A stretch of DNA of 43,505 nucleotides, from the NCBI GenBank assembly GCA_024279285.1, contig JAJRRR010000266.1:1-43505 (forward strand), given 5' to 3'. The translations under genes were made by a program, and so were the position numbers. How positions within the stretch are numbered: position 1 is the stretch's first letter; each line of letters opens with the position of its first letter. The DNA is from Planctomycetota bacterium. Lineage in GTDB: Bacteria > Planctomycetota > Planctomycetia > Pirellulales > S012-138. Positions 2,672 through 42,486 of this stretch are shown piece after piece. A model generated the notes under the pieces. It saw only the letters and a list, made by a program, of their open reading frames with translations. It searched no databases and was not told the DNA's origin.

Positions 2672-2829
2672 GCTGATTGCCTTGCTGGCCAGGGGTTGGC
2701 GGAAGTCGGAATACATTCATTATCACCAAAAATCCACCCTGTGCGAAACCTTGGCGTGGCCATGGGGTTTAATGAAACAGAAGGGCTTCAAGGCACAGTG
2801 CCCCTTTGATACCGGAAGGAAAGGCGTTT

Positions 2830-4443: not shown

Positions 4444-4485
4444 TTTGCAGGACCTTCCAGCCCGATTGGGGAAGGAGAATCCACA

Positions 4486-14248: not shown

Positions 14249-14386
14249 CCTGCCCCTTTGCGAAGCTTCGCCTTGGGCACAACTGCAACCCCACCCGTCG
14301 TGTGGTAAGTTGGAACAATGGCAGTGGGAGTCGCTCCACCAGTGCACCTTTCACCGCGGCATCGCCGCCACTGTGGGAAGCCAACG

Positions 14387-16309: not shown

Positions 16310-16333
16310 CCCTTGCTCTGGGAAAAAACAACG

Positions 16334-17263
16334 ATGCAACCCAACATGGAAATTGCCGCTTGGATCCTTGTTTTGGCCACTTTTGTTTTTTTGGCCATCC
16401 TTGGGGCGGTGGCGCTGTGGGCGCTTTCGCGTAGTGCCCGAAGTGGAACGGACGGTTTTGGCATGGTCGGGCGCACCTTGGGTTGGTTGTTGGTGGCTGC
16501 GGTGGTGTGGAAACTAGCCCAGTTCCCGGAGGACTTCTGGACCAGGGTACAAGAGCGCCTCGTCCAGCAACTCCCCACGGCACCAGAACGCCCATCCCAG
16601 GCACCTCCCTCGGACTCCCCCTCGGATCAACCCCCTCCGAAAGCGGAACCTTCTGGAGAACAGCCTCCGTGGGGGGACAGCCAGGGAAAGCCTTCTGCTC
16701 CCCTGCCCTCGTGGACCCGTCAGGAAAAGTGGCGATTTGAACAAGGGCAACAAGGTTGGGTGTTGCGGCGAGCGGTGCACACGCAGTTTTTTTCAGCCGA
16801 GGAGCTTCCCCGGGCTCAGCAGGAGTTGCGGCTTCGGGTGTGTACTCAACTGGCCCTGCTGGCCCAACAGCAATTCCGCCTGGATGACGAAAAGACCCAA
16901 CATCTGACCCAACACTTGAACCAATGGCCCCGAACCGAAGAACTGTTCCTCAAAGAGACTTTTCAAGAAGTGCGTCACTTTGAGCCGCCCACGGGCACGA
17001 TGTACCGCCTGCACGCTTTGCTTGAAGTGCATCAACAAGACCTGCATCGGCTGGACCAACTGGTTCAGGAGCTTCGTGCCCGAGAGGCAGCCTCTCGGGT
17101 AGTTTGGGCTTTGGGGGGGATCTGGGTGGCATTGGGTCTGGTGTTGGTTGGACTGAAGATAGATCAAGGCACCCGAGGGCGATTTCGCCGATGGTTGCAA
17201 GTTGGCGTGGGGGCCAGCATATTGGGATGGGGAGCATTGGTCCTATGGGCCCTGGGGCTATAG
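16334..17263 (+). CDS. Membrane protein (2 N-terminal TM, soluble domain, 2 C-terminal TM), hypothetical
   Basis: Operonic between kinase and sigma factor; hydrophobic segments at both ends and a Pro/Ser-rich linker. Confidence 0.75.
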   Translation: MQPNMEIAAWILVLATFVFLAILGAVALWALSRSARSGTDGFGMVGRTLGWLLVAAVVWKLAQFPEDFWTRVQERLVQQLPTAPERPSQAPPSDSPSDQPPPKAEPSGEQPPWGDSQGKPSAPLPSWTRQEKWRFEQGQQGWVLRRAVHTQFFSAEELPRAQQELRLRVCTQLALLAQQQFRLDDEKTQHLTQHLNQWPRTEELFLKETFQEVRHFEPPTGTMYRLHALLEVHQQDLHRLDQLVQELRAREAASRVVWALGGIWVALGLVLVGLKIDQGTRGRFRRWLQVGVGASILGWGALVLWALGL

Positions 17264-17304
17264 GAGCCCTGGTGGCCCTCCCTTTGTCCCGGTCCTGATG
17301 TCCT

Positions 17305-17952
17305 ATGGCCCCATCCGCCTCCGAAGACGATCAGCGGCTTGTTGCCCAAGTCCGCCAAGGCGACGCCCAGGCTTGGGAAGAACTGATTGCCCGATACGAA
17401 GGTCGCCTGCTGGCGTTTGTCCGCTCGCGGCTCCAGCGACCCGAAGAAGCCGAAGACATCGTGCAGGAAACTTTCGTGGGCTTTTTGACCAGTTTGCCCC
17501 ACTATGATGAATCCCGATCCTTGGAAACTTATCTTTTTACCATCGCCGCCTACAAGCTGACGGACTATTTGCGTCGTCAGGGGCGTCGGCCCACGCTTTC
17601 CCTCTCCGACGCCGCCGGAGATTCCACCACCTCTTGGCAACTCCTCTCCCCGGTCCAAGGGGCTTCCACCATCTTCGGCAACCAAGAACGACAACACCAG
17701 GAAGAACAAGTCTTGGTGAAAGCCCTGCGCAGCATCGTTTCTGCCTGGCAGGAGCGTGGAGATTGGGACAAACTGCGGTGCGTGGAGTTGCTTTTTGTGC
17801 GCGGTTTGGCCAACAAACAAGTGGCCGCCGTGCTCCAAATGTCCGAGCAAACCGTGGCCAATGTGAAGTTTGAGTTTCTCCGCAAGCTCAAACAAGCCAT
17901 CCGCCGCCAAGGCGGGACCAGCCTGATTGTGGAGCAAGGAGATCGGGCATGA
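17305..17952 (+). CDS. ECF sigma-70 factor
   Basis: GDAQAWEELIARY, EEAEDIVQETF, YLFTIA.YKLTDYLRR (region 2); region-4 HTH GLANKQVAAVLQMSEQTVANVK. Confidence 0.93.
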   Translation: MAPSASEDDQRLVAQVRQGDAQAWEELIARYEGRLLAFVRSRLQRPEEAEDIVQETFVGFLTSLPHYDESRSLETYLFTIAAYKLTDYLRRQGRRPTLSLSDAAGDSTTSWQLLSPVQGASTIFGNQERQHQEEQVLVKALRSIVSAWQERGDWDKLRCVELLFVRGLANKQVAAVLQMSEQTVANVKFEFLRKLKQAIRRQGGTSLIVEQGDRA

Positions 17953-21088: not shown

Positions 21089-22189
21089 TCAAGCAGCGAC
21101 TTTTTCCCGAGGCGCTCCTTGAGCTGGGAGCACAATGCAGCCGGCCACCTCTCCGCCGCAGCGGCGCAGGAGTCGTTGGGCCATTTGGGCATCGGCTCGG
21201 GCACTCTCTTCCAAGCTCAACACCAATAGCACCTGGCCCATCTCGGCCAAAGTTTCCCAACATTCGGACTCCTCCACCGGAGGTCCTACAACCAACACCC
21301 AGTCAAACTCTTTACGCCACTGGCCTAGAAGCTGAACCAGGCGGGAACGAACTCCGGCTTGCAAAGAGGACCAAGGGAGTTTGCCAGGAGGGAGCCATTG
21401 CACGCCCGGGTAAACCCCTGGACGCAAAAGCCGGCGCCAGTGATGTTGATCTTGGGCCAGAAGCTCGGTCAGCCCTGGTCCGGGTGACAGGGTGCTGGTT
21501 TGAGCAAAAACGAGCAGAACTTGCTTGCCTTGGGCTGCGGCAGCCCCTGCCAGCCCTTGGGCCAACTGGCCAAGCCCTTGCTCAGCCGGGGGCACAGGAC
21601 ACAAAGCTACCACTTGGGCAAGCCTGGATCCAAGCCGACACTGCAAGTCCTGGTAAAGCTCCTTGTAAAACTCCGGCACGCATTTAGCCCGATCCCTTGC
21701 TCCAACTGGTGTTTTCGAAGGCGGATCGGAGGCGAAATCCTCATTGGCTCCCTGCCCCTGCGCGTGCTCCAACGGTGAAGCCCCCTGCTGCGAAACCAAA
21801 GAAGCCGAAGGCTTTCGCTCGCTCTGCTCAGATTCAAAAGAGTGCTCGGAAGCGTCGTCAAAACGAAGCTGCGTCCAGTGGGGTCCGGAGGCCCCGTGTG
21901 AGTTGTCCCGGCGGAGCTTACGCTGGGATGGGGACTCCGGAACCTGAATGCCAGGGCCAATGGTCCATTGCGCCGCCCATTGCCGCTTCCAGTCCATCAG
22001 CCCTACGGGCAGCCGCCATACTTCCTGCCAAGGAGTGTGTGCTTCCGCAGTTTGCCTGCTCAGATGCAGTGGCAGCCGGGGGACCGGCAGAAAACAACTC
22101 ACCTGCAAGGACACACATCCCCTGTGTACCAGTTCCCAGGTCTTTTGCTTTGATCCCATGTGGTTGCCGGATTCACGAGAAGCTGGCAT
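21089..22189 (-). CDS. Degenerate CpsD/CapB (BY-kinase)-like P-loop protein with disordered N-terminus
   Basis: C-terminal pattern VVAL...GKQVLLV..PGLTELL..LPPG..FDWVLVVGPP..VLLVL..VAGCIV follows BY-kinase topology; start at 22189 after GAGG SD. Confidence 0.65.
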   Translation of the reverse strand: MPASRESGNHMGSKQKTWELVHRGCVSLQVSCFLPVPRLPLHLSRQTAEAHTPWQEVWRLPVGLMDWKRQWAAQWTIGPGIQVPESPSQRKLRRDNSHGASGPHWTQLRFDDASEHSFESEQSERKPSASLVSQQGASPLEHAQGQGANEDFASDPPSKTPVGARDRAKCVPEFYKELYQDLQCRLGSRLAQVVALCPVPPAEQGLGQLAQGLAGAAAAQGKQVLLVFAQTSTLSPGPGLTELLAQDQHHWRRLLRPGVYPGVQWLPPGKLPWSSLQAGVRSRLVQLLGQWRKEFDWVLVVGPPVEESECWETLAEMGQVLLVLSLEESARADAQMAQRLLRRCGGEVAGCIVLPAQGAPREKVAA

Positions 22190-22205
22190 AGTGCCCTCGT
22201 CCCCT

Positions 22206-24356
22206 TTAGCTTTGTTGCGGACCGTGCAACTGACGAAATGCCTCGGGCCACTGCTGTCGCGGCACCACTTCCACATCCTGCTCTGCCGACGCGGTTGCCG
22301 GTTCCTCGGATTCGGTTTGTCCTTCCTCCTCAATGAGCAACACGCCTTCTCCAGCAGATACTTCTACGGCAGAAGCTGGCAAGTTCTGCTCCTCGGGAGC
22401 TTGGACTGCCAAGTCAGGTCCTTCTGCCGAATCGGGTTGGTGCGTCCCCGAAAGGCCCTGTGGCTGCGAAGACTCTGCTTGGGAAGCAGAGATCAGCGGA
22501 GCATAAGGATCCACCACCACTTCCACCCGATCCGGATGCACTTGTACCTGGATTTCCTCTCCTGGTGAAGCCGCCTCAGGTGGCTCCAACTTGAGCCGGA
22601 CCGGCTCCGTCGGTTCTTTGGCGATGGTTCGCCCCGAAGCGGTTCGTTGCGACAAGCCCTCAGAAGAAGCGTCTTCCGGCGATTCATCGCAGTGCAGCAG
22701 TTCGGACGCTGCGGAGACTGTTTGAGTGCGCGGGTGATCTTGAGCAGACGGAGTTGACAGCGATTGGGCATCCAGGGCTGCGTAGAGATCCTCTATGGTT
22801 TCCTCTTCGAACTGGGCACTTGCCGAACCAACTTGTGCATCTGCCGAAGGAGCATCCGTTTGAGTTTCTTGCTGAGCTTGTTCCAGGATTGTTTGCCAAT
22901 TGCGATCCAATTGGTGCAAGGTTTGCCGGATGTCCAGCTCATGCCGTACAAACGGCTCTGCCGGTTCTTCGGTTTCAGGGTGCTCTTGCTGGGCGGAGGT
23001 TGCCACGGCAGCCTCCCCCTGCTCTGACGCTTCTTCCGAAGTCAACGCTTCTTCTGAAGCCAAAGGTCCTGGCTCCGAGGTGCCAAAGACCACGGAAGCT
23101 GTGGCTTCTTGTCCCTGGGGTGAGATGTGTTCTGGCTGCTGAGCCTCCGGCGCACGGATAGCTCCCGTTTCGGAAGATTCGGCTTCCTTTTCGGTTTCTT
23201 GTTCTGCGGATTCCCCAGTGAGATGCTGTTCAGGCTGCTGCTGGGAATCGGGAAGGGCTTGCTTTCCCTGGGGGTCTTCAGCTTTCCGGGCCGGAGAATC
23301 CGAAAGCCTCAAGGAAGTATCCTGTTGGGAAGCTGCTTGCTCCGGTGCCGAAGAATCTTCTGCCTGTTGGGCAGGTTGGGACGAGTTGGGCGTTTGGTCC
23401 TCCTGGCTGGAAGACTCAGACTCTCCTGCCGTCGAGGGGGAAGTGGTTGTGGTTTCTGGCAGAGGGTCGTCCAAGGTGCCAAATTCCACCACCGCTCCGG
23501 CGCTTTCTGGCGAGGGGTTTTCCGGGCTCGGCTCCGTCCAAGCCGAAGGGAGTTGTTGAAGTTGGGCCCAAGCTTCGTGGATCAGAGCACCCGTCACTGG
23601 CCGCACCCGACGCGAATAAGCCAACACCAAAGCGTGGTCGCACACCTGGTTGATCAGCCGCGGCACCCCGTCAGTGAGCCGAAACACTGCCTCGTAGGCA
23701 TCGGGAGCAAACACCTGGGTGGCCTGGCCGCCAGAGACGGCCAGCTCAAACCGTATGTAGTCAGCCGTCTCGGCTTTGTCAAAGCTTTCCAAGTAGCAGC
23801 GAACAGCTAGACGCTGATTCAAAGACTCCAACTCCGGGCCACTGAGACTCTCTTCCAGCCGGAGCGTTCCGGCCAACACCAATCGCACCACAGGCTCGTT
23901 GTGCCGAACCACATTGGTCAGCATCCGCAACTGATCCAGCAGGAAGGGATCCAAGCCATGGGCTTCGTCCACCAGCAGGGCCAAGCCGCGATGGAAGCGT
24001 TCTTCCCGGGTGAGCTTTCTTCTCAAAAGGAGTTGCAGCCGGGCTTCGTCTTCGGGAAGCTGTTCTTCGCCCAGGGCTTCCAGGAGAGTTTGGAACAGTT
24101 CCTTGCGGGAGCGGATCAGGCCGTGGCTCAAGAGCACCGAAGGCACTTGTTGAGGCAACTGCTCTGCCAGCACTAGCAGCAGCAGGGTTTTGCCCAACCC
24201 GGGGCCACCGATCACCACTGCTGGTCCCTCACCTCGCTGAATACAGCGCAGCAAATCGGCTCGGGCGGCGTCAATGGCCGTGCCCGGGAAATACCGCTTC
24301 GGCACTGGCACGGAGGGAAACGGACGCTGGGAAAGTCCAAAGAAGCTCTCGTACAT
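22206..24356 (-). CDS. ExeA/GspA-like AAA ATPase with long acidic low-complexity tail
   Basis: MYESFFGL...PF, Walker A GGPGLGKT, Walker B LLVDEAH, LRMLTN, SLNQRL, GVPRLINQVCDHAL. Confidence 0.9.
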   Translation of the reverse strand: MYESFFGLSQRPFPSVPVPKRYFPGTAIDAARADLLRCIQRGEGPAVVIGGPGLGKTLLLLVLAEQLPQQVPSVLLSHGLIRSRKELFQTLLEALGEEQLPEDEARLQLLLRRKLTREERFHRGLALLVDEAHGLDPFLLDQLRMLTNVVRHNEPVVRLVLAGTLRLEESLSGPELESLNQRLAVRCYLESFDKAETADYIRFELAVSGGQATQVFAPDAYEAVFRLTDGVPRLINQVCDHALVLAYSRRVRPVTGALIHEAWAQLQQLPSAWTEPSPENPSPESAGAVVEFGTLDDPLPETTTTSPSTAGESESSSQEDQTPNSSQPAQQAEDSSAPEQAASQQDTSLRLSDSPARKAEDPQGKQALPDSQQQPEQHLTGESAEQETEKEAESSETGAIRAPEAQQPEHISPQGQEATASVVFGTSEPGPLASEEALTSEEASEQGEAAVATSAQQEHPETEEPAEPFVRHELDIRQTLHQLDRNWQTILEQAQQETQTDAPSADAQVGSASAQFEEETIEDLYAALDAQSLSTPSAQDHPRTQTVSAASELLHCDESPEDASSEGLSQRTASGRTIAKEPTEPVRLKLEPPEAASPGEEIQVQVHPDRVEVVVDPYAPLISASQAESSQPQGLSGTHQPDSAEGPDLAVQAPEEQNLPASAVEVSAGEGVLLIEEEGQTESEEPATASAEQDVEVVPRQQWPEAFRQLHGPQQS

Positions 24357-24537: not shown

Positions 24538-26019
24538 CTACCACACTCCCGCTGCCGTCATCCGGACCAGACAAGCCAGAGCCAGCAACGGGTCGTGACG
24601 GAGCAATTGGGCAAATTGCTGCTGACCTACTGTGGCTACAACCACCCAAAGGACCAAAACCACCAGTAGGGCTTCGGCTCCTCGTTGGATCCAGAACAGC
24701 CGTTGTCGCAGTCGTTGCACCGGCCCTGGCAAGTAAGGGAAGCACTGGGCCCGAATGGCCGGAACGCCCAAAGATTGAGCCACTTCGTCCGCCGTGGCAA
24801 ACGCCCTCTGAGCACGGCGTCCCAGCCCAAGGGCTCCCAAGGCCACCGTGGCGCCCAATATCGCCAAAGCTCCCAAGAGCCCATTGCGACGATTGGCAAT
24901 CCACTGTGGAGTGCCCAGGCTCTGGATCACTTGAAAGTTCTCAGGCCGATCCAGCAGGAGCAAATACTGCCACAGTTGGGCTTCCTGCTGAGCTGCTTGG
25001 ATGTACTGTTGGGTCAGGTTGCTCAATCGGTCCTGAAACTGACGAAGCTGAGCCAGATGCTCCCGCAGCAGAGTAGATGTAGTGGCGGAGGTGGTCTGTT
25101 GGGAAGCTTTGTGGACCATGGTGCGTCCTGCCTGACGAAGCGATTGAGCAAGTTGGGCTCGGAGCCGGGCCAACTGTTGCAACAGGAGTTTACGCTCCGG
25201 GTGCAATGGGGTAAGCCGCACAGCCAATTGGGCATCTTGGGCCTCCAACTGGGCAATCCGACGACGGAGTTGCTCAATGGTATCTGTGGGCGGAGTCTTG
25301 ACCGGGCCTTGGAAACCGGAAGACGAATCAGGGTGGCCCTGAGGACCTTGGGCCTGCTTGGCACTCTGGACGGGCCAGCGCCAATAAGCCACCGCAGCCA
25401 CGGAATCGGATTCTCCCAAAACCCCCTTCAACCACCGCCGAAACTCCTCCTCGGCACGCAGCAGGCTTTGCCATCGCTGCTGGCTGTGATGGTGTGCCGC
25501 CATCCAGCGTTGAAACACGCCTTGACGCACTTGGGCCAAAGTGCGTTGGGAGGTTCGCCGAAGCCAGGATTCAATTTGAGCTGCAGCAGTGCGGGGTCGG
25601 CGCACCACGAGCTGGACACTCACCTGAGCCGCAGTGGCTTGATAGGTGAACACGGCTTGGGCAGGAACTTCCTCCAAGCCCAGCAAACTGGCCGCCTGAC
25701 GACGCTGCTGCACCGATTGGGCTTCCCAACGCCAGTGATTCTGGGAAAGTGCCCGTGACTGGCTGGCCTCCATGCCCAAATGCACCAGGAAAGCTTTTCC
25801 CAGCTCTTGCCGAGTTTGTTGATCCAGCCAAGGAGGCAAAGGAGCGCGAAGACTGACTGCCCCCTGCACCCTCACGCCCGTGGCCCAAGTACCACCCAAC
25901 ACCATCCCCCAGAGCACCACTCCGGCACCCAGCACCACGGCCAAATAAAAACTTGGCACAAGGGCTGGACTGCTCTGAGGAGGTGTAAGGGAACTGGAGG
26001 ATGCCGTGCGCTTGTTCAT
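24538..26019 (-). CDS. Wzc/GumC-like polysaccharide co-polymerase (chain-length determinant-like) membrane protein
   Basis: TM1, coiled coil with LTPLHPE, TM2, then FATADEVAQSLGVPAI motif and a third TM; start at MNKRT (26019) is uncertain. Confidence 0.6.
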   Translation of the reverse strand: MNKRTASSSSLTPPQSSPALVPSFYLAVVLGAGVVLWGMVLGGTWATGVRVQGAVSLRAPLPPWLDQQTRQELGKAFLVHLGMEASQSRALSQNHWRWEAQSVQQRRQAASLLGLEEVPAQAVFTYQATAAQVSVQLVVRRPRTAAAQIESWLRRTSQRTLAQVRQGVFQRWMAAHHHSQQRWQSLLRAEEEFRRWLKGVLGESDSVAAVAYWRWPVQSAKQAQGPQGHPDSSSGFQGPVKTPPTDTIEQLRRRIAQLEAQDAQLAVRLTPLHPERKLLLQQLARLRAQLAQSLRQAGRTMVHKASQQTTSATTSTLLREHLAQLRQFQDRLSNLTQQYIQAAQQEAQLWQYLLLLDRPENFQVIQSLGTPQWIANRRNGLLGALAILGATVALGALGLGRRAQRAFATADEVAQSLGVPAIRAQCFPYLPGPVQRLRQRLFWIQRGAEALLVVLVLWVVVATVGQQQFAQLLRHDPLLALACLVRMTAAGVW

Positions 26020-26173
26020 CGGAGCAAACTCAGCTCTGTACTTTTTAACAACAAGGACTAAGGGCTTCGACCAAGCCGGTTTACTGACAAATTGCCCTCG
26101 GAGTTGCAAGAGCACTTTGCAGGACGCATGCTGGAAAACTGCTAGCGAACCCGAATCGTGAAGGAGCGCCGTT

Positions 26174-34125: not shown

Positions 34126-35427
34126 CTAAAGCTGCTTGAGCACATCATAAGCGATTTGGGCAGCTTGTTGGATGTGTTGAGGCTCATGGGCGGCTGAGAG
34201 ATACCAGATGCCTCGCCCAATCAGCCGCACGCCCCGGTCGTGCATACCGGCAACAAATCGGGCATATTTCTTCACATCGTAGCGAAGACATTCGCGCAAA
34301 TCGCGTACCTTCTCCAGTGGAGTGAACCCGGCATGAAACACTGCTCCTGGTCCTTGAACCAGCATCGGATGTCCTGCCCGATGGGAAACTTCCCGCAACA
34401 GCTCCATCAGCTCCTGGCCCAAGCGGTGCAGGCGATCCGGCACTTGCTGTTCCCGAAGCACCTTCAAGGTGGCCAAAGCCGCCGCCACCGAGGGCACTCC
34501 GGAGTTCATCGTTCCGGCGTGGATCACGGTTCCCTGGGCCAGAAGCTCCATCAGTTCCGTTTTTCCGGCCAGCACGCTGATGGGAAACCCATTGGCCAAC
34601 GCTTTGCCAAACACGGCAAGGTCCGGCGTCACACCCAACAGGGCTTGCGCCCCTCCCAAATGGACCCGAAAACCGGTTATCACTTCGTCAAAGATCAACA
34701 CAACCTGGTGCTTGGTGCACCAGCGGCGCAGTTGTTCCAGAAAGCCCGGTTCGGGAGGAATGCATCCGTTGTTGCACATCACTGGCTCGCAAATCACGGC
34801 GGCCAGTTGCGAAGCGTGCCGATCAAGCAGAGGGAAAACTACCTCCGGGCGATTCCAAGGCAAGATGAGCAGGTCTTGGGCCAGATGATCCGGCACACCC
34901 TGACTCCAGGGCACTGCCTGGGGGGCCTCCACCGGCCCTAGCTCCCCCTGCTGGCCGCTGATGCTCCAAGCCACATTGTCCAGCCAGCCGTGGTAGTGGC
35001 CTTCGAACTTGGCCACTCGGGTGCGTCCACTCCAGGCTCGGGCCAGACGCAGCGCGGCATGGACCGCTTCGCTGCCCGAGAGGGAAAACCGCACGCGTTG
35101 GGCACATGGGACAAGCTGGACCACCTGGCGGGCAAGCTCCACCTCTTCCAGGTGCCCGCCAGCATAAAGCTGCCCTTGGCGTGTGAAGTGCTCCACCTGG
35201 CGGAGCACTTCCGGATGGCTGTGGCCCAGGATCAGCGGCCCCTGGCTGAGCGTGAAGTCCAGATAGCGGTTCCCGTCCAAGTCCCAAATCCACGGACCTT
35301 CGGCCCGAGTGTAAAACAACGGATGCGGATACCCGTAACGCCGAAACTGACTAGAAACCCCTCCGGCGAGCACCTGTTGGGCTTGCTGGAACAGTTGGGC
35401 CGAGCGCTCGTAGGTGTACGGTGGCAT
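34126..35427 (-). CDS. Class-III PLP aminotransferase (glutamate-1-semialdehyde aminomutase-like paralog)
   Basis: GGVSS, WDLDGNRYLD, LGHSHP, SGSEA, FEGHYHG, IFDEVITGFR, FGKALANGFP, HAGT; ATG 35427 with GAGGAG SD. Confidence 0.9.
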   Translation of the reverse strand: MPPYTYERSAQLFQQAQQVLAGGVSSQFRRYGYPHPLFYTRAEGPWIWDLDGNRYLDFTLSQGPLILGHSHPEVLRQVEHFTRQGQLYAGGHLEEVELARQVVQLVPCAQRVRFSLSGSEAVHAALRLARAWSGRTRVAKFEGHYHGWLDNVAWSISGQQGELGPVEAPQAVPWSQGVPDHLAQDLLILPWNRPEVVFPLLDRHASQLAAVICEPVMCNNGCIPPEPGFLEQLRRWCTKHQVVLIFDEVITGFRVHLGGAQALLGVTPDLAVFGKALANGFPISVLAGKTELMELLAQGTVIHAGTMNSGVPSVAAALATLKVLREQQVPDRLHRLGQELMELLREVSHRAGHPMLVQGPGAVFHAGFTPLEKVRDLRECLRYDVKKYARFVAGMHDRGVRLIGRGIWYLSAAHEPQHIQQAAQIAYDVLKQL

Positions 35428-35456
35428 GAGCTTCTCCTCTTGAAGCGACAAGGGGC

Positions 35457-35462
35457 ATTATA
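35457..35462 (-). promoter_or_regulatory. Consensus -10 hexamer upstream of the aminotransferase operon
   Basis: TATAAT on - strand 30 nt upstream of ATG 35427; -35 is weak. Confidence 0.45.
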
Positions 35463-35859
35463 AGCCTTACCGCTTCGGTGGCGAGCACTTGGGCAGTAGG
35501 GCCTGCCAAGATTTTGTTTTGCCATGTGCACAGCATGTGGGGGGAGTTTTAGCACTCAGCCCCCGGTAGGGTGCAACCTTGCCCACCGAGCCTCCGCTCT
35601 GGCAACTAAGACCGCCGGTGGTTGAAGGAAACCAGAGCCGACGAAGAACGACCAGAAAGGCTGGGCAGGCTTGCCCCCTGGGGTCTAAAAATCCTCGCTG
35701 GCTGGAAGTTCTGTGAGGCGATTAAGTGGGCAATTTGCCCTTGGCGCGGCTATGGCTTTTTTCTTCACTTTGAGCCTCATCCACGGCCCTCTGTGAGTGA
35801 TCGGGGCATCCGGAGCCGGAAGGATCACCGGACTCGTGTGAGTTTGGGGCTAGCCGAGC

Positions 35860-36678
35860 TTACCGCCGGCGATGCTTGAGCCAATGTCGCCAGCCAAAGT
35901 AAAGAAATCCTAGCACTACCACTAAGCTAACTACCAAAGTCCAATTGGTTCGCTCAGCAAGTTCCTTGGTCGGCGTTTCAATTGCAACCTTGGGTAAAGT
36001 AAGGATACCCTCAATGTACGCTTCCGGATTATTAAGGAAGGTAATCAGCACGGCGGCCACGGCCAAGGAACCCTTGTTGCGCCAGATGAAGTCCATAGCC
36101 TCGTCGCCCCAACGCCGCAGCACGGTGATCAGCTCGTCTTGTTTCCCGACCTCTCGGGCGGTTTTCCATAGAGGGTCGCCTTGGATGATCATGGCCAAGC
36201 GCCGTGCGTTTCGGGAGGAGAGTCGGGCCATGGCTTGAGCGCCTTCTGATCCACAGCGGCGAATTACCGAGGCGGCAATGTCTCCATGGCGCACTAAGGC
36301 TTCGGCTGCTTCGTCGCCAAATTCAGCAACCAGACGCAGTCGGGAAGCTTTCCGTGCTACGGAAATACCTTCGTCGCCGTATCGCGCAAGGACTCGTGAA
36401 GCCGTTTTGCCCAAGGCACCAGCATCTTCAATGGCTTTCAGTCCAGCGGGCCCGGTCTTGCGCACGGCCTCAAACACTTCATCGCCATATTTGACAGCCA
36501 AATTGTCAATGCGTTTAGCAAGAGTCTCCACGCCTTCTCGGGCTGCCTTGGACCCGAACCGTTTTACTATCCACTCGGCTGCTTCGCGGGCGGCCTGCGA
36601 AGCTACCCCTGCCCAACTCGGAGGGGTTCCTACCAGTGTTGTCAACATCGCGATAAGGAGGATCGCATTTCGTGACAT
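35860..36678 (-). CDS. Exported, C-terminally anchored helical-repeat protein, hypothetical
   Basis: AAGGAG SD; signal peptide (..PPSWA|G); repeated (K/R)(Y/F/W/H)G(D/S)E units; C-terminal TM plus KHRRR tail. Confidence 0.85.
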   Translation of the reverse strand: MSRNAILLIAMLTTLVGTPPSWAGVASQAAREAAEWIVKRFGSKAAREGVETLAKRIDNLAVKYGDEVFEAVRKTGPAGLKAIEDAGALGKTASRVLARYGDEGISVARKASRLRLVAEFGDEAAEALVRHGDIAASVIRRCGSEGAQAMARLSSRNARRLAMIIQGDPLWKTAREVGKQDELITVLRRWGDEAMDFIWRNKGSLAVAAVLITFLNNPEAYIEGILTLPKVAIETPTKELAERTNWTLVVSLVVVLGFLYFGWRHWLKHRRR

Positions 36679-36723
36679 CGTGTTCTGACTCCTTACGAGC
36701 GTGAAAGTAAACCACCTGGACTT

Positions 36724-37638
36724 TTAATTACCCAAAGCTTCTCGTATCACGCGACTCCGAGCTTGATGGCGAGCATTTGCCATTTGGGTCAGGATGCGCT
36801 TCACTTCCTTGCGAAGTTCCTGGTGCATTTTGTCAAGCTCTTGGTTTAGCTTTTGAGTTAACTTGCCTTGAGGGTCAGTCCACCATTCCAAAATCCAATC
36901 CACAACAATCCCGACTAGAATGGAAATGCCAAAAGTTTCCCAGCTTACGGCGGTCCCTGCGACAAGAAAACCAATCCGCTGGCTCACTTGAGAAATTATG
37001 ATGGTCACAATTTCCTCTATCACCCAGCCGACGGCGAAACTGGCTATATCACCTTTGATGGACTTCCAGACTTCTTCGTCAAGCTCCCGGAGAGTATCAA
37101 GAGTTTGGTGGTTGATTTGTTTGACGAAGCGGTCGGCGCGCGGTAGGCGATAGTGCAATGAGGGAACATCCGCCTTGATCTTCACAAAAAGCTGATTGTC
37201 AATATTGTCGCACTCCTTGGCAAAGGAAATCAGTGCGCTTTCAACAGTTTTTTTCAGATCATCAGGGCTGAAGACCTTTTGTGCAAAAAGCTTCTGAATG
37301 TACTTCTGGAACTCTTCCTTAGTAGAGAAAATAGTAGAGAAAATATACTCCAATTTGGTACGGAAACTTAGGAGCTCATCGGCGAACTCAGGGGTGTTTT
37401 GCTTGGCTTGTTCGAAGAAGCGGTCAATGGATTCCAAGGAGCGGCCGATGGCCTTTCGGGTCTGTTTGTCGGCCCAATTGATGTCATCTTCAATCCGACT
37501 GATCGGACCCCGGTTGGAAGGTGGCTCATGAATGTTAGGAGGAGTAATACCTCCCTGGAGAGCCTGGTACTGGTAAGCTGCCACGGCAGCCACACAGACG
37601 GCCACTGCGCCGAGCAAGGGTTTTAGGACGTACTTCAT
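36724..37638 (-). CDS. Alpha-helical protein with N-terminal hydrophobic segment and internal hydrophobic hairpin, hypothetical
   Basis: 304-aa low-GC ORF with GGGGG SD; coiled-coil segments flank IASFAVGWVIEEIVTIII..GFLVAGTAVSWETFGISILVGIVVDWILEWW. Confidence 0.85.
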   Translation of the reverse strand: MKYVLKPLLGAVAVCVAAVAAYQYQALQGGITPPNIHEPPSNRGPISRIEDDINWADKQTRKAIGRSLESIDRFFEQAKQNTPEFADELLSFRTKLEYIFSTIFSTKEEFQKYIQKLFAQKVFSPDDLKKTVESALISFAKECDNIDNQLFVKIKADVPSLHYRLPRADRFVKQINHQTLDTLRELDEEVWKSIKGDIASFAVGWVIEEIVTIIISQVSQRIGFLVAGTAVSWETFGISILVGIVVDWILEWWTDPQGKLTQKLNQELDKMHQELRKEVKRILTQMANARHQARSRVIREALGN

Positions 37639-37886
37639 GGTTTTTCAATCCCCCGTTTTGGAGAATTTGAATTGTCTCTACTGTTTGTTCGGACAAGCAA
37701 GAAATTTCCTGACGCTACGGGCGGAACCCGTGCAGAAAAGGAAGAACTCTATCGGCTGTGAGCACAAACCCACTTGGATGGAAACGGTCCTGAGCTTCGT
37801 TTTTCACCCGTCCTCTATCCCCGTCTCTGCCTCCCAAGAAGAGGACCCTTTTGTGCGTTTCCTTACATACTTTGCCTTTTGTAACC

Positions 37887-37915
37887 AGTGTACGGCTCTG
37901 CGTAGTCAAAAGCAA
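37887..37915 (-). promoter_or_regulatory. Sigma70-like promoter of the low-GC gene pair
   Basis: TTGCTT (37915-37910) -17 nt- TACACT (37892-37887). Confidence 0.5.
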
Positions 37916-37966
37916 GCTTCTCAGAAAAATCTTCCCCAGGGACGGAAAAAAAGACACTTGGCCTCC

Positions 37967-39421
37967 CTAAGCCAGCAGTTCGTGGATTATGTGTCCGTGT
38001 ACATCTGTTAAGCGGCGGTCCAGGCCGTTGTAGTAGTAGGTGACTCGGGTATGATCTAGACCCAGCAGGTAAAGCAAAGTGGCGTAGAAGTCCCAGACTG
38101 TGGTGGGTTTTTCCACCGCGCGGCGTCCGAACTCGTCGGTGGCCCCGTAGCTTACGCCGCCTTTGACCCCTGCGCCCATCATCCAGCATGTGAATCCGTC
38201 CGGGTTGTGATCGCGTCCTTTGGTGCCTTGCTGGTGGGTGGGCATGCGGCCAAACTCGGTGGTCCAGATCACGACGGTTTCGTCCAGCAAGCCGCGTTGT
38301 TTCAAGTCGGTCAGCAGTGCGGCGGTGGGCTGATCGAGGATGGGGCAATGGCGTTCGTAGTCGGGTTTGAGGGTTTTGTGGGCATCCCAGTTCAGCAGCC
38401 CATCCACGCCTGAGGCCCGAGAGGCACAATACAGCGTCACATAGCGCACCCCTCGCTCCAGCAAGCGGCGAGCCAGGAGGCAGTTTCGGGCATAGGCGGC
38501 TTTGAGCTTGTTGGGATCCTCGGTTCCGTAGAGCCGATGGATGGAGGCTGGCTCAGCAGCCAGATTGCTCACTTCGGGAGCCGAAAGCTGCATGCGTGCG
38601 GCCAATTCGTAAGCAGCGATTCGGGCTTGTAGCTCCGTGTTGCCCTCGCGCTGCTGCAAGTGGCGTCGGTTCAGGAAGTTCAAAAATCGCCGGGTGGCCT
38701 GTTCTTCTTCAATGGAGATGCTCTCTGGGGTGGCGAGGTTTCGGATGGGCCGATGAGCGGCCATGACGATCCCTTGGTGCTTAGCGGGCAAGAACCCGGC
38801 CGACCAGTTGGCTTTCCCATTGGGCGGCTCGCCCCGAATGTCCGGAATGGCCACATAGGTGGGCAAGTTGCGGTTTTCGCTTCCCAGGGCATAGCTGACC
38901 CAGGCCCCCGCACTGGGAAAGCCTTCGCTGGTTTGGCCAGTGTTCATGAACACACAAGCCGGACCATGGGTGTTGCTCTTGCTGGTCATGGAGTGGATGA
39001 AGGCGATGTCGTCCACATGCTTAGCCAGATGAGGGAGCATGGAGCTGATGGGCTTTCCGCACTGGCCGGCTTTCACAAAGGGCCAGGGTGGGGCCATCAG
39101 CGCGCCGTTTTTTCCTTGGAAGGAAACGAAGTTTTCCTCTCCCGGCAAGGGCTCGCCGGCCCGACGCTCCAGCTCCGGCTTATAGTCCCAAAGGTCCACA
39201 TGCGACACTCCCCCGGGACAAAAGATCTGAAGCACCCGTTTGGCCCGAGCCGGAAAATGAGGCATGCCTTGTCCCGGGACCCATTCCACGGCCGGGACTT
39301 CGCGGGCCAGCAAGTCCAACAGGCCCACGCCCACCAGGCCCGTGAACATGCAATCCAACCACTGTCGTCGCGAAAGCACCTGCTGGAAACACGCTTGGGC
39401 CGGATGCAAGGGCCGCTTCAT
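37967..39421 (-). CDS. DUF1501 domain protein with Tat-like signal
   Basis: SRRQWL; PHFPARAKRV.QIF.PGGVSHVDLWDYKP, CLLARRLLERGVR, WDAH, TEFGRMP, GRDHNP; AAGGA SD before 39421 (alternative start 39457). Confidence 0.93.
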   Translation of the reverse strand: MKRPLHPAQACFQQVLSRRQWLDCMFTGLVGVGLLDLLAREVPAVEWVPGQGMPHFPARAKRVLQIFCPGGVSHVDLWDYKPELERRAGEPLPGEENFVSFQGKNGALMAPPWPFVKAGQCGKPISSMLPHLAKHVDDIAFIHSMTSKSNTHGPACVFMNTGQTSEGFPSAGAWVSYALGSENRNLPTYVAIPDIRGEPPNGKANWSAGFLPAKHQGIVMAAHRPIRNLATPESISIEEEQATRRFLNFLNRRHLQQREGNTELQARIAAYELAARMQLSAPEVSNLAAEPASIHRLYGTEDPNKLKAAYARNCLLARRLLERGVRYVTLYCASRASGVDGLLNWDAHKTLKPDYERHCPILDQPTAALLTDLKQRGLLDETVVIWTTEFGRMPTHQQGTKGRDHNPDGFTCWMMGAGVKGGVSYGATDEFGRRAVEKPTTVWDFYATLLYLLGLDHTRVTYYYNGLDRRLTDVHGHIIHELLA

Positions 39422-39486
39422 GGCAGCTTTCCTTATCTGGGCTTGGGGATGGTTCATGACCAGGGTTTCGGCTCACTAAAAGGGGC

Positions 39487-42375
39487 TTAGTCCAAGTAAA
39501 TCATCTCGTTAGCGTTGAACATTGCTCGGCACAAAGCCGTCAGTCCAAACTGACGGACAAGTTGGGTGGCTTGTTCCAATTCTTCAGGCTCAGGTTCCCG
39601 AGCAAACAGGAGCCAAAACGCGCGGCGGACCTGAGCTTTGGGCTCGGGACCGGCCTCGCGTCGCAAGCGCGAGGCCATAGCCTGGGCCATGTCCAGCACA
39701 AACTGGTGATTCATCATCGTGAGGGCTTGCAGGGGGCTGGTGGTTTGGGCCCGACGCGGCGCGGCAAACGCCGGATCAGGACAGTCAAAGTCGCTCAGGA
39801 CATCCACGCGGGCAGCCCGAGCGTTCTGATGATAAACACTGCGACGGTAAGTCTCCGGTCCCGGGCGATCCAGCGGTTCATAAGTGGCCACATTGTCTTG
39901 CAGGTAGCGATAGAGACGAAACCCGGGTCCTCCCATCCGACGATCCAGCACTCCGGCCACGGCTAGCATGGTGTCGCGCACTTGCTCGGCAGTTAGCCGC
40001 CGTGGCGGGTAGCGCCACAGCAGCGTCGTGTTGGCGTCTTTTTTGGCCGCTTCGGGCCGGAAAGCCGAACTTTGGCGATAAGTTTGCGAAAGCACAATCA
40101 ACCGATGCAACGGCTTGAGACGCCAACCGTGATCCCGAAGATAGCGAGCCAGAAAGTCCAGCAACTTTGGATGGGTGGGCCGAGTGCCCATCATGCCAAA
40201 ATCACTGGGCGTGGACACAATTCCTCGGCCAAAGTGGTAGTGCCACACCCGATTGGCCAGCACCCGAAGCGTAAGCGCATTGCGGTCCGAAGCGATCCAT
40301 CGGGCCAGAGCCAATCGGCGCTCCGCTTCGGGAGCCTTGGGGTCCAGACGGTAGGCACCCACGGTACGCTCCAGCACCGAGATGCTCTTAGGCACCACGG
40401 CGGGGCCTTTCTTTTGGGGATCGCCTCGTTGGAAGATGTGGAAGGGGCCGGGAGCCGGACGCATCCGACCCACCCACCACCGCGGAAACGGTGGAACCGC
40501 GCGGATCTCCGACTCCACCTGGGCCAACTGCGCACTGAGTTGGTCAAGCTGGGAGCGTTCTTCCGGGGTGATTTCGGCTTCCAGAAGTCGCTTACGTCGG
40601 AGGCGATCGTTGAGTGGTTTGCGCAAGCGGCTATCGGCCACCACGCTCCAGCTCTTGCCATCCAGGGAGACTTCTATCACATACTCGCCCACGAAGGCCG
40701 TGTATCCGTGCGTGGGCGGCAACTGGCGCTGGCGATCGCTGGAGAAGACAATGCGTTCAATGCGGACCTTTTGGGGCAAGGTAATTACCAGCTCCGGTCC
40801 GGCGGCGATCCAGCGTGTGCCAAAGTCCCCGTCTATAGCCCGATCGGCTGAATAAGCGTCTGCAAAGTCTTCCGCAGTGCGACTGGCTCCTTGGGCTTTG
40901 GCTCCCAGGGCCAGTTGAGCCACATTGCGGCTTTGAGGGCCAGAGGTCCACACTTCAAACTCGTCAATGCGGAAACCGGTTCGGGCATCGGGATTGGTGT
41001 CCAGGGCAAACACGCGAAGCCTGACGAATCGGGCTTCCACCGGGGGAAAGCGTTCTTCGGTTCCGTAGCGGCTGACTGGTTCTCGAGTCCAGGTGGCCTG
41101 GAAGCTAGACAGTTTTTGCTCAGCTCGCTTCAGCACCCGGGCAATGAGCTGATTTCGTTGCTGTTGGAGTTTTTGCTTTTTGGCCAGCAGGGGGCGGAGT
41201 TTTTCCTGGCGCAGGCGGCGCTGCTGGGGGCTGGCAATTTCCCGATCCCCGTGAAACACTCCTGCAAAGGTGGCATACCAGGCGTAGTAGTCGTCTTGTT
41301 CAATGGGATCAAACTTGTGTTCGTGGCATCGGGCACAGCCCATCGTGATGCCCAAGAACGCCTCGGCCGTGGCTCGGATGATCTCGTCCAGGGTGTTGGC
41401 CCGAATGATGGCCGCCTGCACCGGGTCCTGATTGCCCACATTGTCATACGGCCCACAGACCAAAAACGCCGTGCCTACGGCCACTTCGGGATTGTAAGGC
41501 TCCAGCACATCCCCGGCCAACTGTTCCAGAATGAACCGGTTAAACGGCTTGTCCTGGTTGAAAGAGCGAATGACATAGTCCCGATAGGGCCACAGGTTGT
41601 TGATGATCACATTGCGTTCAAAGCCGTTGCTTTCGCCGAACCGGACCACATCCAGCCAGTGTCTTCCCCATTGCTCTCCGTAGGCGGGAGAAGCCAGTAG
41701 GCGGTCCACAACTTTTTCGTAAGCATCGGGCGAGTCATCGTTGAGAAACGCCTGAACTTCTTCCGGAGTGGGGGGAAGTCCGGTTAGGTCGTAGGTGACA
41801 CGGCGAATCCAGGTGCGGCGATCTGCCGGGGGGTTGGGCTTCAGTCCGGCTTGAGCCAGTCGGGCATAGATGAACCGATCAATGGGATTTTTTCGCCACT
41901 GGGGCGGTGCTTGAGGCACCTGGGGCGGCTCCCCTTCCCACAGCGGCTGATACGCCCACCAGTTCTCATCCCCTCGCAAGGGCTTGAGCACCAGCCCCTT
42001 GGGCCAGTGGGCCCCTTGGGCAATCCAACGGCGAATCAGCTGGATTTGCTTTTCGCTTAGAGGTTTGCCGCTTTTGGGCATCTCGGGTCGTGGTTTTCCG
42101 GGCGGGACTACGATTAGCTCCAACAGCGCGCTGGACTCCACATCCCCTGGCACCACATAACCGCCTTCTAGCAGGTCCTCGGGCGTGGCCAAGGAGAGAT
42201 CACCCTTTTTCTTCTCGGCGCTGTGGCAGGAGAGGCAATGTTTTTGGAAGATGGGAGCCACATCTTTTTGGAAGTCCACAGGCTGATCGGCCCAAAGGGA
42301 AGTGTTCAGCCCCCATCCCATCCCCAACACGCATACCATCCACCCCAGCCCCAAGGTCGGTTTAGGTCGGGTCAT
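39487..42375 (-). CDS. Planctomycete cytochrome c + DUF1549 + discoidin (F5/8)-like + DUF1553 (PSD1) protein
   Basis: Signal peptide; VDF..DV.PIF..HCLSCH, RRVTYDLTGLPPT, YGEQWGRHWLD, CARCHEHKFDP, NRVW..HFGRGIV, THP.LLD, QAL.MMN; AAGGA SD before 42375. Confidence 0.93.
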   Translation of the reverse strand: MTRPKPTLGLGWMVCVLGMGWGLNTSLWADQPVDFQKDVAPIFQKHCLSCHSAEKKKGDLSLATPEDLLEGGYVVPGDVESSALLELIVVPPGKPRPEMPKSGKPLSEKQIQLIRRWIAQGAHWPKGLVLKPLRGDENWWAYQPLWEGEPPQVPQAPPQWRKNPIDRFIYARLAQAGLKPNPPADRRTWIRRVTYDLTGLPPTPEEVQAFLNDDSPDAYEKVVDRLLASPAYGEQWGRHWLDVVRFGESNGFERNVIINNLWPYRDYVIRSFNQDKPFNRFILEQLAGDVLEPYNPEVAVGTAFLVCGPYDNVGNQDPVQAAIIRANTLDEIIRATAEAFLGITMGCARCHEHKFDPIEQDDYYAWYATFAGVFHGDREIASPQQRRLRQEKLRPLLAKKQKLQQQRNQLIARVLKRAEQKLSSFQATWTREPVSRYGTEERFPPVEARFVRLRVFALDTNPDARTGFRIDEFEVWTSGPQSRNVAQLALGAKAQGASRTAEDFADAYSADRAIDGDFGTRWIAAGPELVITLPQKVRIERIVFSSDRQRQLPPTHGYTAFVGEYVIEVSLDGKSWSVVADSRLRKPLNDRLRRKRLLEAEITPEERSQLDQLSAQLAQVESEIRAVPPFPRWWVGRMRPAPGPFHIFQRGDPQKKGPAVVPKSISVLERTVGAYRLDPKAPEAERRLALARWIASDRNALTLRVLANRVWHYHFGRGIVSTPSDFGMMGTRPTHPKLLDFLARYLRDHGWRLKPLHRLIVLSQTYRQSSAFRPEAAKKDANTTLLWRYPPRRLTAEQVRDTMLAVAGVLDRRMGGPGFRLYRYLQDNVATYEPLDRPGPETYRRSVYHQNARAARVDVLSDFDCPDPAFAAPRRAQTTSPLQALTMMNHQFVLDMAQAMASRLRREAGPEPKAQVRRAFWLLFAREPEPEELEQATQLVRQFGLTALCRAMFNANEMIYLD

Positions 42376-42433
42376 CGCCGTCGTCCTTTTTGAGTAGAAG
42401 CACCAGGCGGGAAAAGAGACGGTGGGATCAACA

Positions 42434-42486
42434 TGTAGTACAACCTTTTGTATGTTGTATGATACAAATCCTCTCCTGTTCGTCAA
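42434..42486 (-). promoter_or_regulatory. Sigma70 promoter overlapped by GntR-type operator(s)
   Basis: TTGACG (42486-42481) -16 nt- TATCAT (42464-42459); palindrome TTGTAT-G-ATACAA at 42455-42467, extra TTGTATG half-site at 42448-42454, TGTAGTACA at 42434-42442. Confidence 0.65.

Follow-up and report, generated by a model that had tools for sequence, protein, structure and literature searches.

A two-gene module of two undescribed helical protein families, mainly from Planctomycetota, with predicted membrane anchors and a possible link to DNA passage

What kind of system is encoded by two adjoining genes whose products reach the cut-off of no curated Pfam or NCBIfam family? The question is raised by a locus in a 43,505-nucleotide stretch of DNA from a Planctomycetota bacterium (contig JAJRRR010000266.1 of GenBank assembly GCA_024279285.1; the whole of this stretch is referred to here as the window). 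A sequence-only reading of the locus had described two co-oriented genes lying 45 bp apart and had proposed that they form a horizontally acquired, two-part, membrane-active system with a role as a toxin, a pore-former or a means of defence. The two genes, designated P1 and P2, are open reading frames (ORFs) of the minus strand and are spaced as described:

36724 to 37638, minus strand: P1 gene, 304 amino acids (ORF); N-terminal membrane helix, long helical bundle, glycine-rich hydrophobic hairpin and C-terminal helix
36679 to 36723, minus strand: spacer of 45 nucleotides between P1 and P2; AAGGAG precedes the P2 start codon, as read from the sequence
35860 to 36678, minus strand: P2 gene, 272 amino acids (ORF); signal sequence, periplasmic helical-repeat domain and C-terminal membrane anchor, as predicted

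We found that P1 and P2 constitute a self-contained, co-inherited and co-evolving two-gene module, made up of two undescribed families that occur mainly in the Planctomycetota. A P1-family gene is located directly upstream of the P2-family gene, on the same strand, at 76 of 80 loci, so the proposal of a two-part unit was well founded. These 80 loci were kept from 154 relative-encoding stretches that were confirmed when 185,579 species, each represented by one genome, were scanned with a P2 motif pattern that is present in 71 of the 89 known members of the family; a plasmid, NC_019895.1, carries the additional label L081. Among the exceptions to pairing, the contig of L004 ends 33 nucleotides before P2, and L018, L020 and L021 belong to one tight, Pirellula-type clade in which P2 follows a gene encoding a NadB-like FAD protein and P1 is missing. 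The gap between the two genes measures from -11 to +31 nucleotides at 33 of 54 related loci and is -4 nucleotides at 12 of those. The pairwise identities of P1 and of P2 are correlated across 70 loci (Mantel r = 0.81, a value reached by none of 999 permutations), with P1 being the more diverged of the two proteins in 96.6% of the 2415 locus pairs (mean identity 0.316, compared with 0.408 for P2). The module has no further conserved neighbour: the commonest neighbouring family, DUF1501, is present at only 9 of 81 loci, counting either side and either strand.

An exhaustive search returned a P1 family of 600 representative clusters at E <= 1e-3, of which 327 reach E <= 1e-10, and its best member apart from P1 itself is 43% identical to the protein from the window; a word-index search returned P1 alone (one match among 2829 candidates). 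The P2 family has 91 proteins at E <= 1e-3, including the window's own, and the best relative is 71% identical. The best relatives of P1 and of P2 are each found on a contig of 2622 nucleotides, which is probably the same contig. The record titles of 79 of the 80 kept loci start with 'MAG', and 73 of the loci are labelled Planctomycetota. Labels from outside that phylum (Saccharibacteria, Opitutales and Verrucomicrobiales) may be binning artefacts or may represent transfers. Variant arrangements of P1 were also seen: L002 has two tandem P1 paralogues ahead of P2 (5838-7933), and P1 is split into two overlapping ORFs in L013 (7010-7980), L054 (2136-3178) and L057 (2556-3682), through either a frameshift or an assembly error.

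Two families with hundreds of members that are encoded together are without a curated description or a solved relative, and they are concentrated in a phylum about whose envelope and gene transfer little is known. The pair fits nothing known; its novelty is judged by exclusion and not by the demonstration of a new mechanism.

Predicted architecture of P1 and P2

The AlphaFold2 (AF2) model of P1, based on an alignment of 117 sequences, has a predicted local distance difference test score (pLDDT) of 84.2 and agrees with the earlier description of a helical protein with a hydrophobic hairpin. Its helices span residues 5-28, 45-80, 82-103, 107-121, 125-157, 168-226, 236-254 and 256-303. They are laid out as an N-terminal helix (5-28) with a linker, a bundle of long helices (45-157) and a 59-residue helix (168-226) that enters the hairpin. 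The following features of P1 can be placed on the sequence:

37555 to 37632, minus strand: P1 residues 3-28, N-terminal hydrophobic helix, a signal anchor or a signal peptide (hydropathy peak of 2.03 at residues 3-21; AF2 helix 5-28)
37320 to 37343, minus strand: perfect 12-nucleotide tandem duplication within P1, IFST-IFST, residues 99-106 (repeat search and sequence)
36877 to 37047, minus strand: P1 residues 198-254, hydrophobic hairpin whose tip loop spans 227-235 (AF2 helix-loop-helix)

An N-terminal hydrophobic segment is present in 104 of 117 P1-family members, with a mean net charge of +1.66 on the side preceding it and +0.41 on the side following it. Small residues are abundant in the hairpin, which is followed by a D-P-x-G motif; the tip loop is modelled with low confidence (pLDDT below 50 at residues 229-233). 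Several positions in and beside the hairpin are conserved across the family (consensus residue first, numbered as in the window): G223 (83%), L225 (81%), G228 (88%), T235 (82%), G237 (98%), D247 (97%), D255 (89%) and P256 (88%). To judge from its sequence, a hairpin of this type with a conserved aspartate could contribute to oligomerisation. The IFST duplication looks like a recent in-frame slippage event because the closest P1 homologue, P0093, has a single copy.

No NTPase or Dynamin_N domain was detected in P1, in P2 or among the 117 P1-family members. A sequence-profile search of the PDB with P1 gave nothing below E 0.19, and a Foldseek search of the PDB with the P1 model gave nothing at E <= 0.001. 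Fused or longer forms of P1 were absent from 8000 candidates, which is weak evidence; two matches of 569 and 527 amino acids that had the appearance of long forms were rejected as over-extended ORFs.

The AF2 model of P2, based on an alignment of 89 sequences, is all helical and has a pLDDT of 91.9. P2 had been described from the sequence as an exported, membrane-tethered protein with bacteriocin-like repeats. The N-terminal hydrophobic segment, the helical repeats and the C-terminal membrane helix with its basic tail are all found, and the repeats themselves are helical repeats marked by five [YFWH]GD[EI] motifs (at residues 64, 100, 120, 131 and 190). The features of P2 are these:

36607 to 36678, minus strand: P2 residues 1-24, signal-like segment at the N-terminus with SWAG as its last residues (from the sequence; putative cleavage site)
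36073 to 36141, minus strand: P2 residues 180-202, the last repeat, with a motif in common with bacteriocins of the aureocin/lacticin-Q type (Pfam PF11758)
35884 to 35949, minus strand: P2 residues 244-265, membrane helix near the C-terminus, with the basic tail RHWLKHRRR after it (hydropathy; AF2 helix 246-271)

The last repeat does have a bacteriocin connection. Aureocin A53 and lacticin Q have in common with P2 a 23-residue helix-turn motif that is rich in tryptophan and phenylalanine and ends in NKG. Positions 6-28 of the 51 in PF11758 are matched in 21 of 89 P2-family members at E <= 0.01 (best E 5.9e-7), and five members that were scanned singly reach 25.3-29.6 bits, the cut-off being 25, through positions 5/6-28/29 of 51 only. 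The match thus covers just half of the Pfam family's length, and the P2 of the window itself goes undetected, with no match at E <= 0.1. The lacticin Q structure (2n8p) aligns to positions 179-201 of the P2 profile at E 0.36. Within the P2 family, G191 and W199 are invariant and conservation is 96% or higher at F197 and K202. Aureocin-type bacteriocins occur as free peptides (profile length 51 positions; lacticin Q chain 53 residues), whereas P2 is an anchored repeat protein of 272 amino acids. As judged from sequence comparison, the likeness is real but partial, and it is confined to the membrane-proximal end of the repeat domain.

The nearest Foldseek matches to P2 as a whole are designed repeat proteins and transcription activator-like effectors, none of them significant. 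No PDB fold matches the P2 model at E <= 0.001, and a sequence-profile search of the PDB gave nothing below E 0.06. A search of viral folds (BFVD) gave nothing at E <= 0.001, and the structural look-alikes found in the Atlas belong to unnamed clusters only, the cluster look-ups providing no informative names.

An N-terminal hydrophobic segment is present in 79 of 89 P2-family members. At the other end of the protein, hydropathy peaks at 1.74 at residues 244-262, and the tail that lies beyond the last hydrophobic segment has a median length of 17.5 amino acids in the family and a mean net charge of +3.76. From the charge counts in the two families it follows that the N-terminus of P1 and the C-terminal tail of P2 should be cytoplasmic and the helical domains periplasmic. 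Taking hydropathy, charge bias and the AF2 models together, we infer that P1 and P2 are each anchored to the cytoplasmic membrane and extend their helical domains into the periplasm.

Genomic contexts of the pair

At eight of the 80 loci (L030, L047, L052, L057, L060, L061, L062 and L064), the pair is adjoined by a gene encoding a type IV coupling protein (T4CP), a VirD4/TraG-like or TraD-like ATPase. The linkage is operonic: it is found in both gene orders, with gaps down to 4-16 nucleotides. The same eight loci also hold ParB-like genes, genes for tyrosine or serine recombinases, ParA and RPA-like replication genes. When 72,556 plasmids were searched with P2 by tblastn, a single record was found, that of the 32-kb plasmid pSINAC03 of Singulisphaera acidiphila, and no other plasmid of the set was found to carry relatives of P1 or P2. 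The gene order in pSINAC03 (L081, NC_019895.1, 5824-11074) is ParB-like gene, P1', P2', small ORF, T4CP gene; P1' matches the A2 profile at E 9e-36 and P2' matches the A1 profile at E 3e-92. The plasmid encodes a MobF relaxase and is typed in PLSDB as conjugative, of mating-pair-formation class MPF_T. No VirB-type gene is named among its 33 listed products, many of which are hypothetical and come from an incomplete PLSDB gene table, and none was detected among 58 flanking ORFs scanned at the eight T4CP loci. We found no published mention of the P1 or P2 families, and in the available text of a comparative paper pSINAC03 figures only as syntenic with pPALBO2 and with an integrated copy, with no discussion of P1' or P2' (PMC5352709).

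In the P2 tree, one clade of nine rows consists of eight T4CP-linked rows and L076, which comes from a 3.6-kb contig (ultrafast bootstrap support 96; SH-like approximate likelihood ratio test 89). The shortened row of L060 falls outside this clade. L060 is binned with the Bacteroidetes and has in common with pSINAC03 an RPA-like replication protein (13718-15211 in L060, 14728-16218 in L081; E 1e-170) in addition to the T4CP; on this sequence evidence it is probably a mis-binned planctomycete plasmid. The P2 of the window is located outside the T4CP clade, on a long branch of 1.12. According to the available part of one study, a MOBF relaxase and a T4CP are frequently encoded on planctomycete chromosomes, a complete mating-pair-formation system was not found there, and no conjugation between planctomycetes has been reported (10.1101/2024.01.22.576637). 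The T4CP-linked clade offers a concrete, testable way into the question of how DNA passes the envelope of planctomycetes or is barred from doing so.

The varying contexts of the pair, and the presence of one clade on a plasmid and on integrase-bearing elements, support the view that the module is accessory in distribution and mobile over evolutionary time. The sequence-only reading had looked to gene neighbourhoods for defence or mobile islands: this one clade answers to the second description, and no defence genes recur around the pair that would answer to the first.

A different association was found with the DUF1501 gene that is located upstream of P1 in the window. Relatives of this gene are near the pair at four loci, at 38-47% identity, compared with 27-30% for paralogues, including the window's second copy. 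The window genes and the four relatives are as follows:

37967 to 39457: DUF1501 gene of the window, upstream of P1 (Pfam E 1.6e-143)
39487 to 42486: PSCyt/PSD partner of that DUF1501 gene
L003, 11696 to 16296: DUF1501, 2.8 kb downstream of the pair, with a 36%-identical PSCyt
L034, 3464 to 4918: DUF1501, same strand, 28 nucleotides past P2
L040, 1073 to 5051: DUF1501, divergent, immediately upstream of the pair
L053, 7636 to 9087: DUF1501, 6.4 kb from the pair

These four loci are scattered in the P2 tree, and their gene orders and orientations differ. An apparent PSCyt-DUF1501-P1-P2 synteny with L066 was rejected, the DUF1501 protein of that locus being only 27% identical and thus a paralogue. 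The pair does lie between an aminotransferase operon and a DUF1501 operon, as had been noted, but the recurrence of the DUF1501 gene at four loci weakens the picture of a cassette inserted between two operons and partly contradicts a recent acquisition.

A possible barrier to DNA passage and its competitors

The reading that we favour, tentatively and as a possibility that stays some way short of probable, is that P1 and P2 form an exclusion-type heteromeric assembly that gates or bars the passage of DNA at the cytoplasmic membrane and are not a secreted binary toxin. P1 would be held by its N-terminal helix and would insert a glycine-zipper-like hairpin bearing the near-invariant aspartate. 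P2 would be a helical-repeat scaffold, tethered by its C-terminal helix and ending in the tryptophan-rich, membrane-proximal motif. Together they would make up a heteromeric complex at the outer surface of the cytoplasmic membrane, and this complex would gate or block the passage of macromolecules, specifically DNA. The pair would then act as a barrier of the entry-exclusion or superinfection-exclusion kind that is swapped between chromosomes and mobile elements, with the fast-evolving P1 as the membrane-inserted part that bears specificity and P2 as the scaffold.

A model for such an arrangement is available in plasmid F, where traS and traT adjoin the T4CP gene traD. The F exclusion genes are a small envelope set, dispensable for transfer, that is found beside a T4CP gene, and one clade of P1-P2 pairs is also found beside a T4CP gene. 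TraS, in the inner membrane, and TraT act on incoming DNA at the membrane of the recipient, as set out in the available part of a description of their roles and locations (PMC7690428). The sole trace of likeness to an exclusion protein is a non-significant, glycine-rich match to TraT at E 0.22, in work that included no search aimed at TraS, TraT, TrbK or Eex.

Several observations weigh against the exclusion reading. No T4CP gene is present within 8 kb of the pair at 72 of the 80 loci, nor is there one in the window, and the link to DNA transfer is therefore an extrapolation from one clade; in this respect most P1-P2 pairs, including that of the window, are unlike the F exclusion genes. P2 is kept without P1 in three related loci (L018, L020 and L021), and the proposed topology was derived from simple hydropathy and charge counts. 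The recurrence of the DUF1501 gene suggests either an old residence beside that operon or a functional tie to it, and not mobility. Planctomycete genomes show little synteny in general, so a varying context is weak evidence of accessory status.

It is rather unlikely, in our estimation, that the module is instead a housekeeping envelope factor, in which P1 would be a GTPase-less relative or analogue of the dynamin trunk and paddle that acts from the periplasm to shape, tether or repair the cytoplasmic membrane, P2 would be its scaffold and the plasmid copies would be incidental captures. The comparison that suggests this is with LeoB/LeoBC (the Eleos system, formerly 'Dynamins', which includes leoABC of enterotoxigenic Escherichia coli (ETEC) and BDLP1 of Nostoc): like P1, these proteins have a helical bundle, a glycine-rich hydrophobic tip and a returning C-terminal helix. 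Positions 313-551 of the 601 in the PADLOC LeoBC profile match P1 residues 46-295 weakly, at E 6.3e-8, and at E <= 1e-3 the LeoBC profile matches 17 of 117 P1-family members and the LeoA profile matches 3 of 117. Dynamin-like stalks also have the top template modelling (TM) scores among the natural PDB hits listed (SynDLP, 7zw6, 0.30; MxA, 3szr, 0.30; MxB, 5uot, 0.28). In the available text on the Leo proteins, LeoB carries a middle domain, a membrane-binding region as well as a GED (GTPase effector domain), and LeoA is reported to lie in the periplasm (PMC4159319); by that description of LeoB, the region matched by P1 should correspond to the middle domain, the paddle and the GED. The proximity of the same DUF1501 subfamily to the pair at four other loci, and a P2 tree that partly tracks taxonomy, for example in its Pirellula clades, are likewise what a resident factor would lead one to expect. 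Unlike the dynamin-like proteins, however, P1 is without a GTPase domain and is partnered by a helical-repeat protein and not by a second dynamin, and the search for fused forms, weak as that evidence is, found none. The P1 family gave negative results with ETEC LeoB and LeoA (hhalign probabilities of 0.27% and 0.69%, respectively; hmmsearch 3.7 bits), the Foldseek matches are not significant, and only 154 relative-encoding stretches were confirmed across the whole genome collection. The relationship of P1 to LeoBC is one of architectural resemblance, with homology uncertain. If the pair were truly a periplasmic, GTPase-less analogue of the dynamin trunk, it would represent a new means by which a bacterial membrane is shaped or guarded. 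The tight operonic linkage to a T4CP gene at eight loci and on pSINAC03 invites another proposal, which we consider unlikely: that P1-P2 is a lineage-specific DNA-transfer apparatus, a membrane platform or channel for the T4CP on planctomycete elements that lack a recognisable mating-pair-formation system, with chromosomal pairs such as that of the window being remnants or re-used copies. The MobF relaxase of pSINAC03, found with no VirB-type mating-pair gene named among the 33 products, fits this proposal, as do the reported planctomycete chromosomes with MOBF and T4CP genes and no complete mating-pair-formation system (10.1101/2024.01.22.576637), and the glycine-rich hairpin with its aspartate could oligomerise. 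The absence of a nearby T4CP, relaxase or integrase gene at 72 of 80 loci and in the window does not fit it; the T4CP-linked set is one derived-looking clade to which the P2 of the window does not belong, and the MPF_T typing in PLSDB leaves room for a conventional system on pSINAC03. More doubtful again is the extended form of the proposal, by which P1-P2, the T4CP and the relaxase would make up a minimal planctomycete conjugation system with P1-P2 as its missing membrane part, and the chromosomal copies would have been re-used as gatekeepers against incoming DNA; in this phylum most elements are without any of the known genes for mating-pair formation.

The remaining explanations are those that the sequence-only reading had raised, and each would have P1 damage a membrane. 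In the first, which we regard as very unlikely, the pair would bring about abortive infection: P2 would sense a perturbation of the envelope and free the hairpin of P1 to depolarise the membrane. In PADLOC, P1 weakly matches LeoBC and four ZorA profiles (E 6e-8 to 0.013 overall, and 1.2e-4 to 0.013 for ZorA), and an accessory pair with atypical GC content at third codon positions (GC3) that is sometimes carried on mobile elements, and one of whose proteins is fast-evolving, is compatible with a defence system. P1 also has in common with the MotA/ExbB/TolQ proteins and ZorA the order of N-terminal membrane helix, helical domain, membrane hairpin and C-terminal helix. It differs from them in having no ExbD/MotB-like partner, in that the anchor of P2 is C-terminal and not N-terminal, and in having a predicted orientation that is the opposite of theirs; P1 has no match to Pfam MotA_ExbB, and hhalign gives a probability of 0.15% with E. 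coli ExbB. P2 has no PADLOC match, defence genes do not recur around the pair, no cytoplasmic sensor domain is evident in P1 or P2, and tblastn found no relatives of either protein in a phage collection. In addition, GTPase P-loops are a requirement of the dynamin defence system, according to the available part of the relevant study (10.1101/2022.05.11.491447), and these are absent here. The proposed role in anti-phage defence is tentative, resting as it does on one weak PADLOC match to LeoBC that was not reproduced with ETEC LeoB or LeoA. Least probable of all, to the point of being improbable, is a two-component alpha-pore-forming toxin that, like ClyA/YaxAB/XaxAB or the colicins, would be directed against other cells. 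ClyA-family toxins are elongated helical bundles of about 300 amino acids with a hydrophobic hairpin at one end, as is P1, the genes of several stand in pairs or triplets, as do those of P1 and P2, and the motif of P2 is also that of pore-forming leaderless bacteriocins. ClyA-family proteins are among the Foldseek matches to P1 as well (SmhB, MakA, ClyA, AhlB/C, XaxB, PaxB and HblL1), but these are non-significant, at E 0.09-0.7 and TM-scores of 0.12-0.22. The candidate identities were rejected: P1 scores 11.2 bits with the NCBIfam model of alpha-xenorhabdolysin A (NF033928; E 0.17) against a cut-off of 125, and hhalign of the P1 family with E. coli HlyE gives a probability of 1.7% over 18 columns. 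Every comparison that was made, by profile, hhalign or Foldseek, has thus gone against the likeness to colicins and to the ClyA/YaxAB/XaxAB pore-formers. Unlike the ClyA family, P2 has the fold of a helical repeat and not that of a second ClyA-type subunit, and by hydropathy P1 and P2 look permanently anchored and not secreted; the helical-repeat body, C-terminal anchor and basic cytoplasmic tail mark P2 as a resident membrane protein, which counts against a toxin. No immunity or secretion genes recur beside the pair.

Base composition and surroundings of the pair in the window

The pair had been described as a low-GC cassette, and this holds for P1 and the spacer upstream of it (each 48.5% GC) but not for P2, which at 55.9% is much closer to the window as a whole (59.3%). 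The other 24 genes of the window range from 56.3 to 62.7% GC, and the 15 segments of 915 nucleotides with the lowest GC content in the entire 43.5 kb all start within 36451-37201. GC3 is 0.548 in P1 (z = -3.5) and 0.557 in P2 (z = -3.2), compared with 0.596-0.718 in the 24 other genes. The additional drop in P1 is due to its amino-acid composition: GC at second codon positions is 0.351, and FYMINK residues make up 28% of the protein against a mean of 16%. Synonymous sites are therefore atypical in both genes and a strikingly low GC content is a property of P1 only. At 54 related loci with enough flanking sequence, the difference in GC content between P1 and its flanks has a median of -0.001 and is -0.08 or lower at one locus, compared with -0.108 in the window, and the offset from the flanks runs in both directions at other loci. 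The deviation is thus a trait of the window locus and not of the family. A recent acquisition of the pair is suggested by GC3, which is the sole pointer to it.

The immediate surroundings of the pair, in addition to the DUF1501 operon, are the following:

37639 to 37966, minus strand: spacer 5' of P1, 328 nucleotides, 48.5% GC, presumed to hold the promoter
37959 to 37974, minus strand: terminator-like hairpin with a T-run, located where the DUF1501 gene ends (6 pairs, loop of 4; a consensus match only)
34126 to 35451: class-III aminotransferase gene, downstream of P2, with an M81/MlrC gene beside it

A spacer of 408 nucleotides separates P2 from the aminotransferase gene. The pair had been credited with a sigma-70-like promoter of its own, and this was not borne out: a consensus scan of 35400-38100 found four sigma-70-like sites (against 1.3 +/- 1.2 in shuffled sequences), none of them in the spacer upstream of P1. 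No Rfam family was found in the window, that spacer included. As the sequence-only reading had also noted, there is no sign of an integrase or of att-like repeats: no integrase, transposase or transfer gene was detected among the 22 other large ORFs that were scanned in the window, no integrase or transposase among the four genes that flank the pair, no tRNA gene in the window and no direct repeats flanking the pair. A search of the window for T4CP and relaxase genes was likewise negative.

The remainder of the window resembles an ordinary planctomycete chromosome, with genes encoding DUF1559 and DUF1598 proteins, an extracytoplasmic function (ECF) sigma factor, a Ser/Thr kinase and RecG. The 43.5 kb contain two pairs of PSCyt/PSD and DUF1501 genes, at 2806-5778 and 37967-42486, whose DUF1501 proteins are about 30% identical. 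A gene for an AAA_22/AAA_16 ATPase of 716 amino acids (22206-24356) is flanked by two large ORFs without a Pfam match (21089-22333 and 24538-26115), and overlaps the first of these by about 130 nucleotides. On the plus strand, genes for the Ser/Thr kinase (14318-16309), a Pfam-less ORF (16313-17263) and the ECF sigma factor (17305-17952) stand in a row, and this row (14318-17952) may be a signalling operon.

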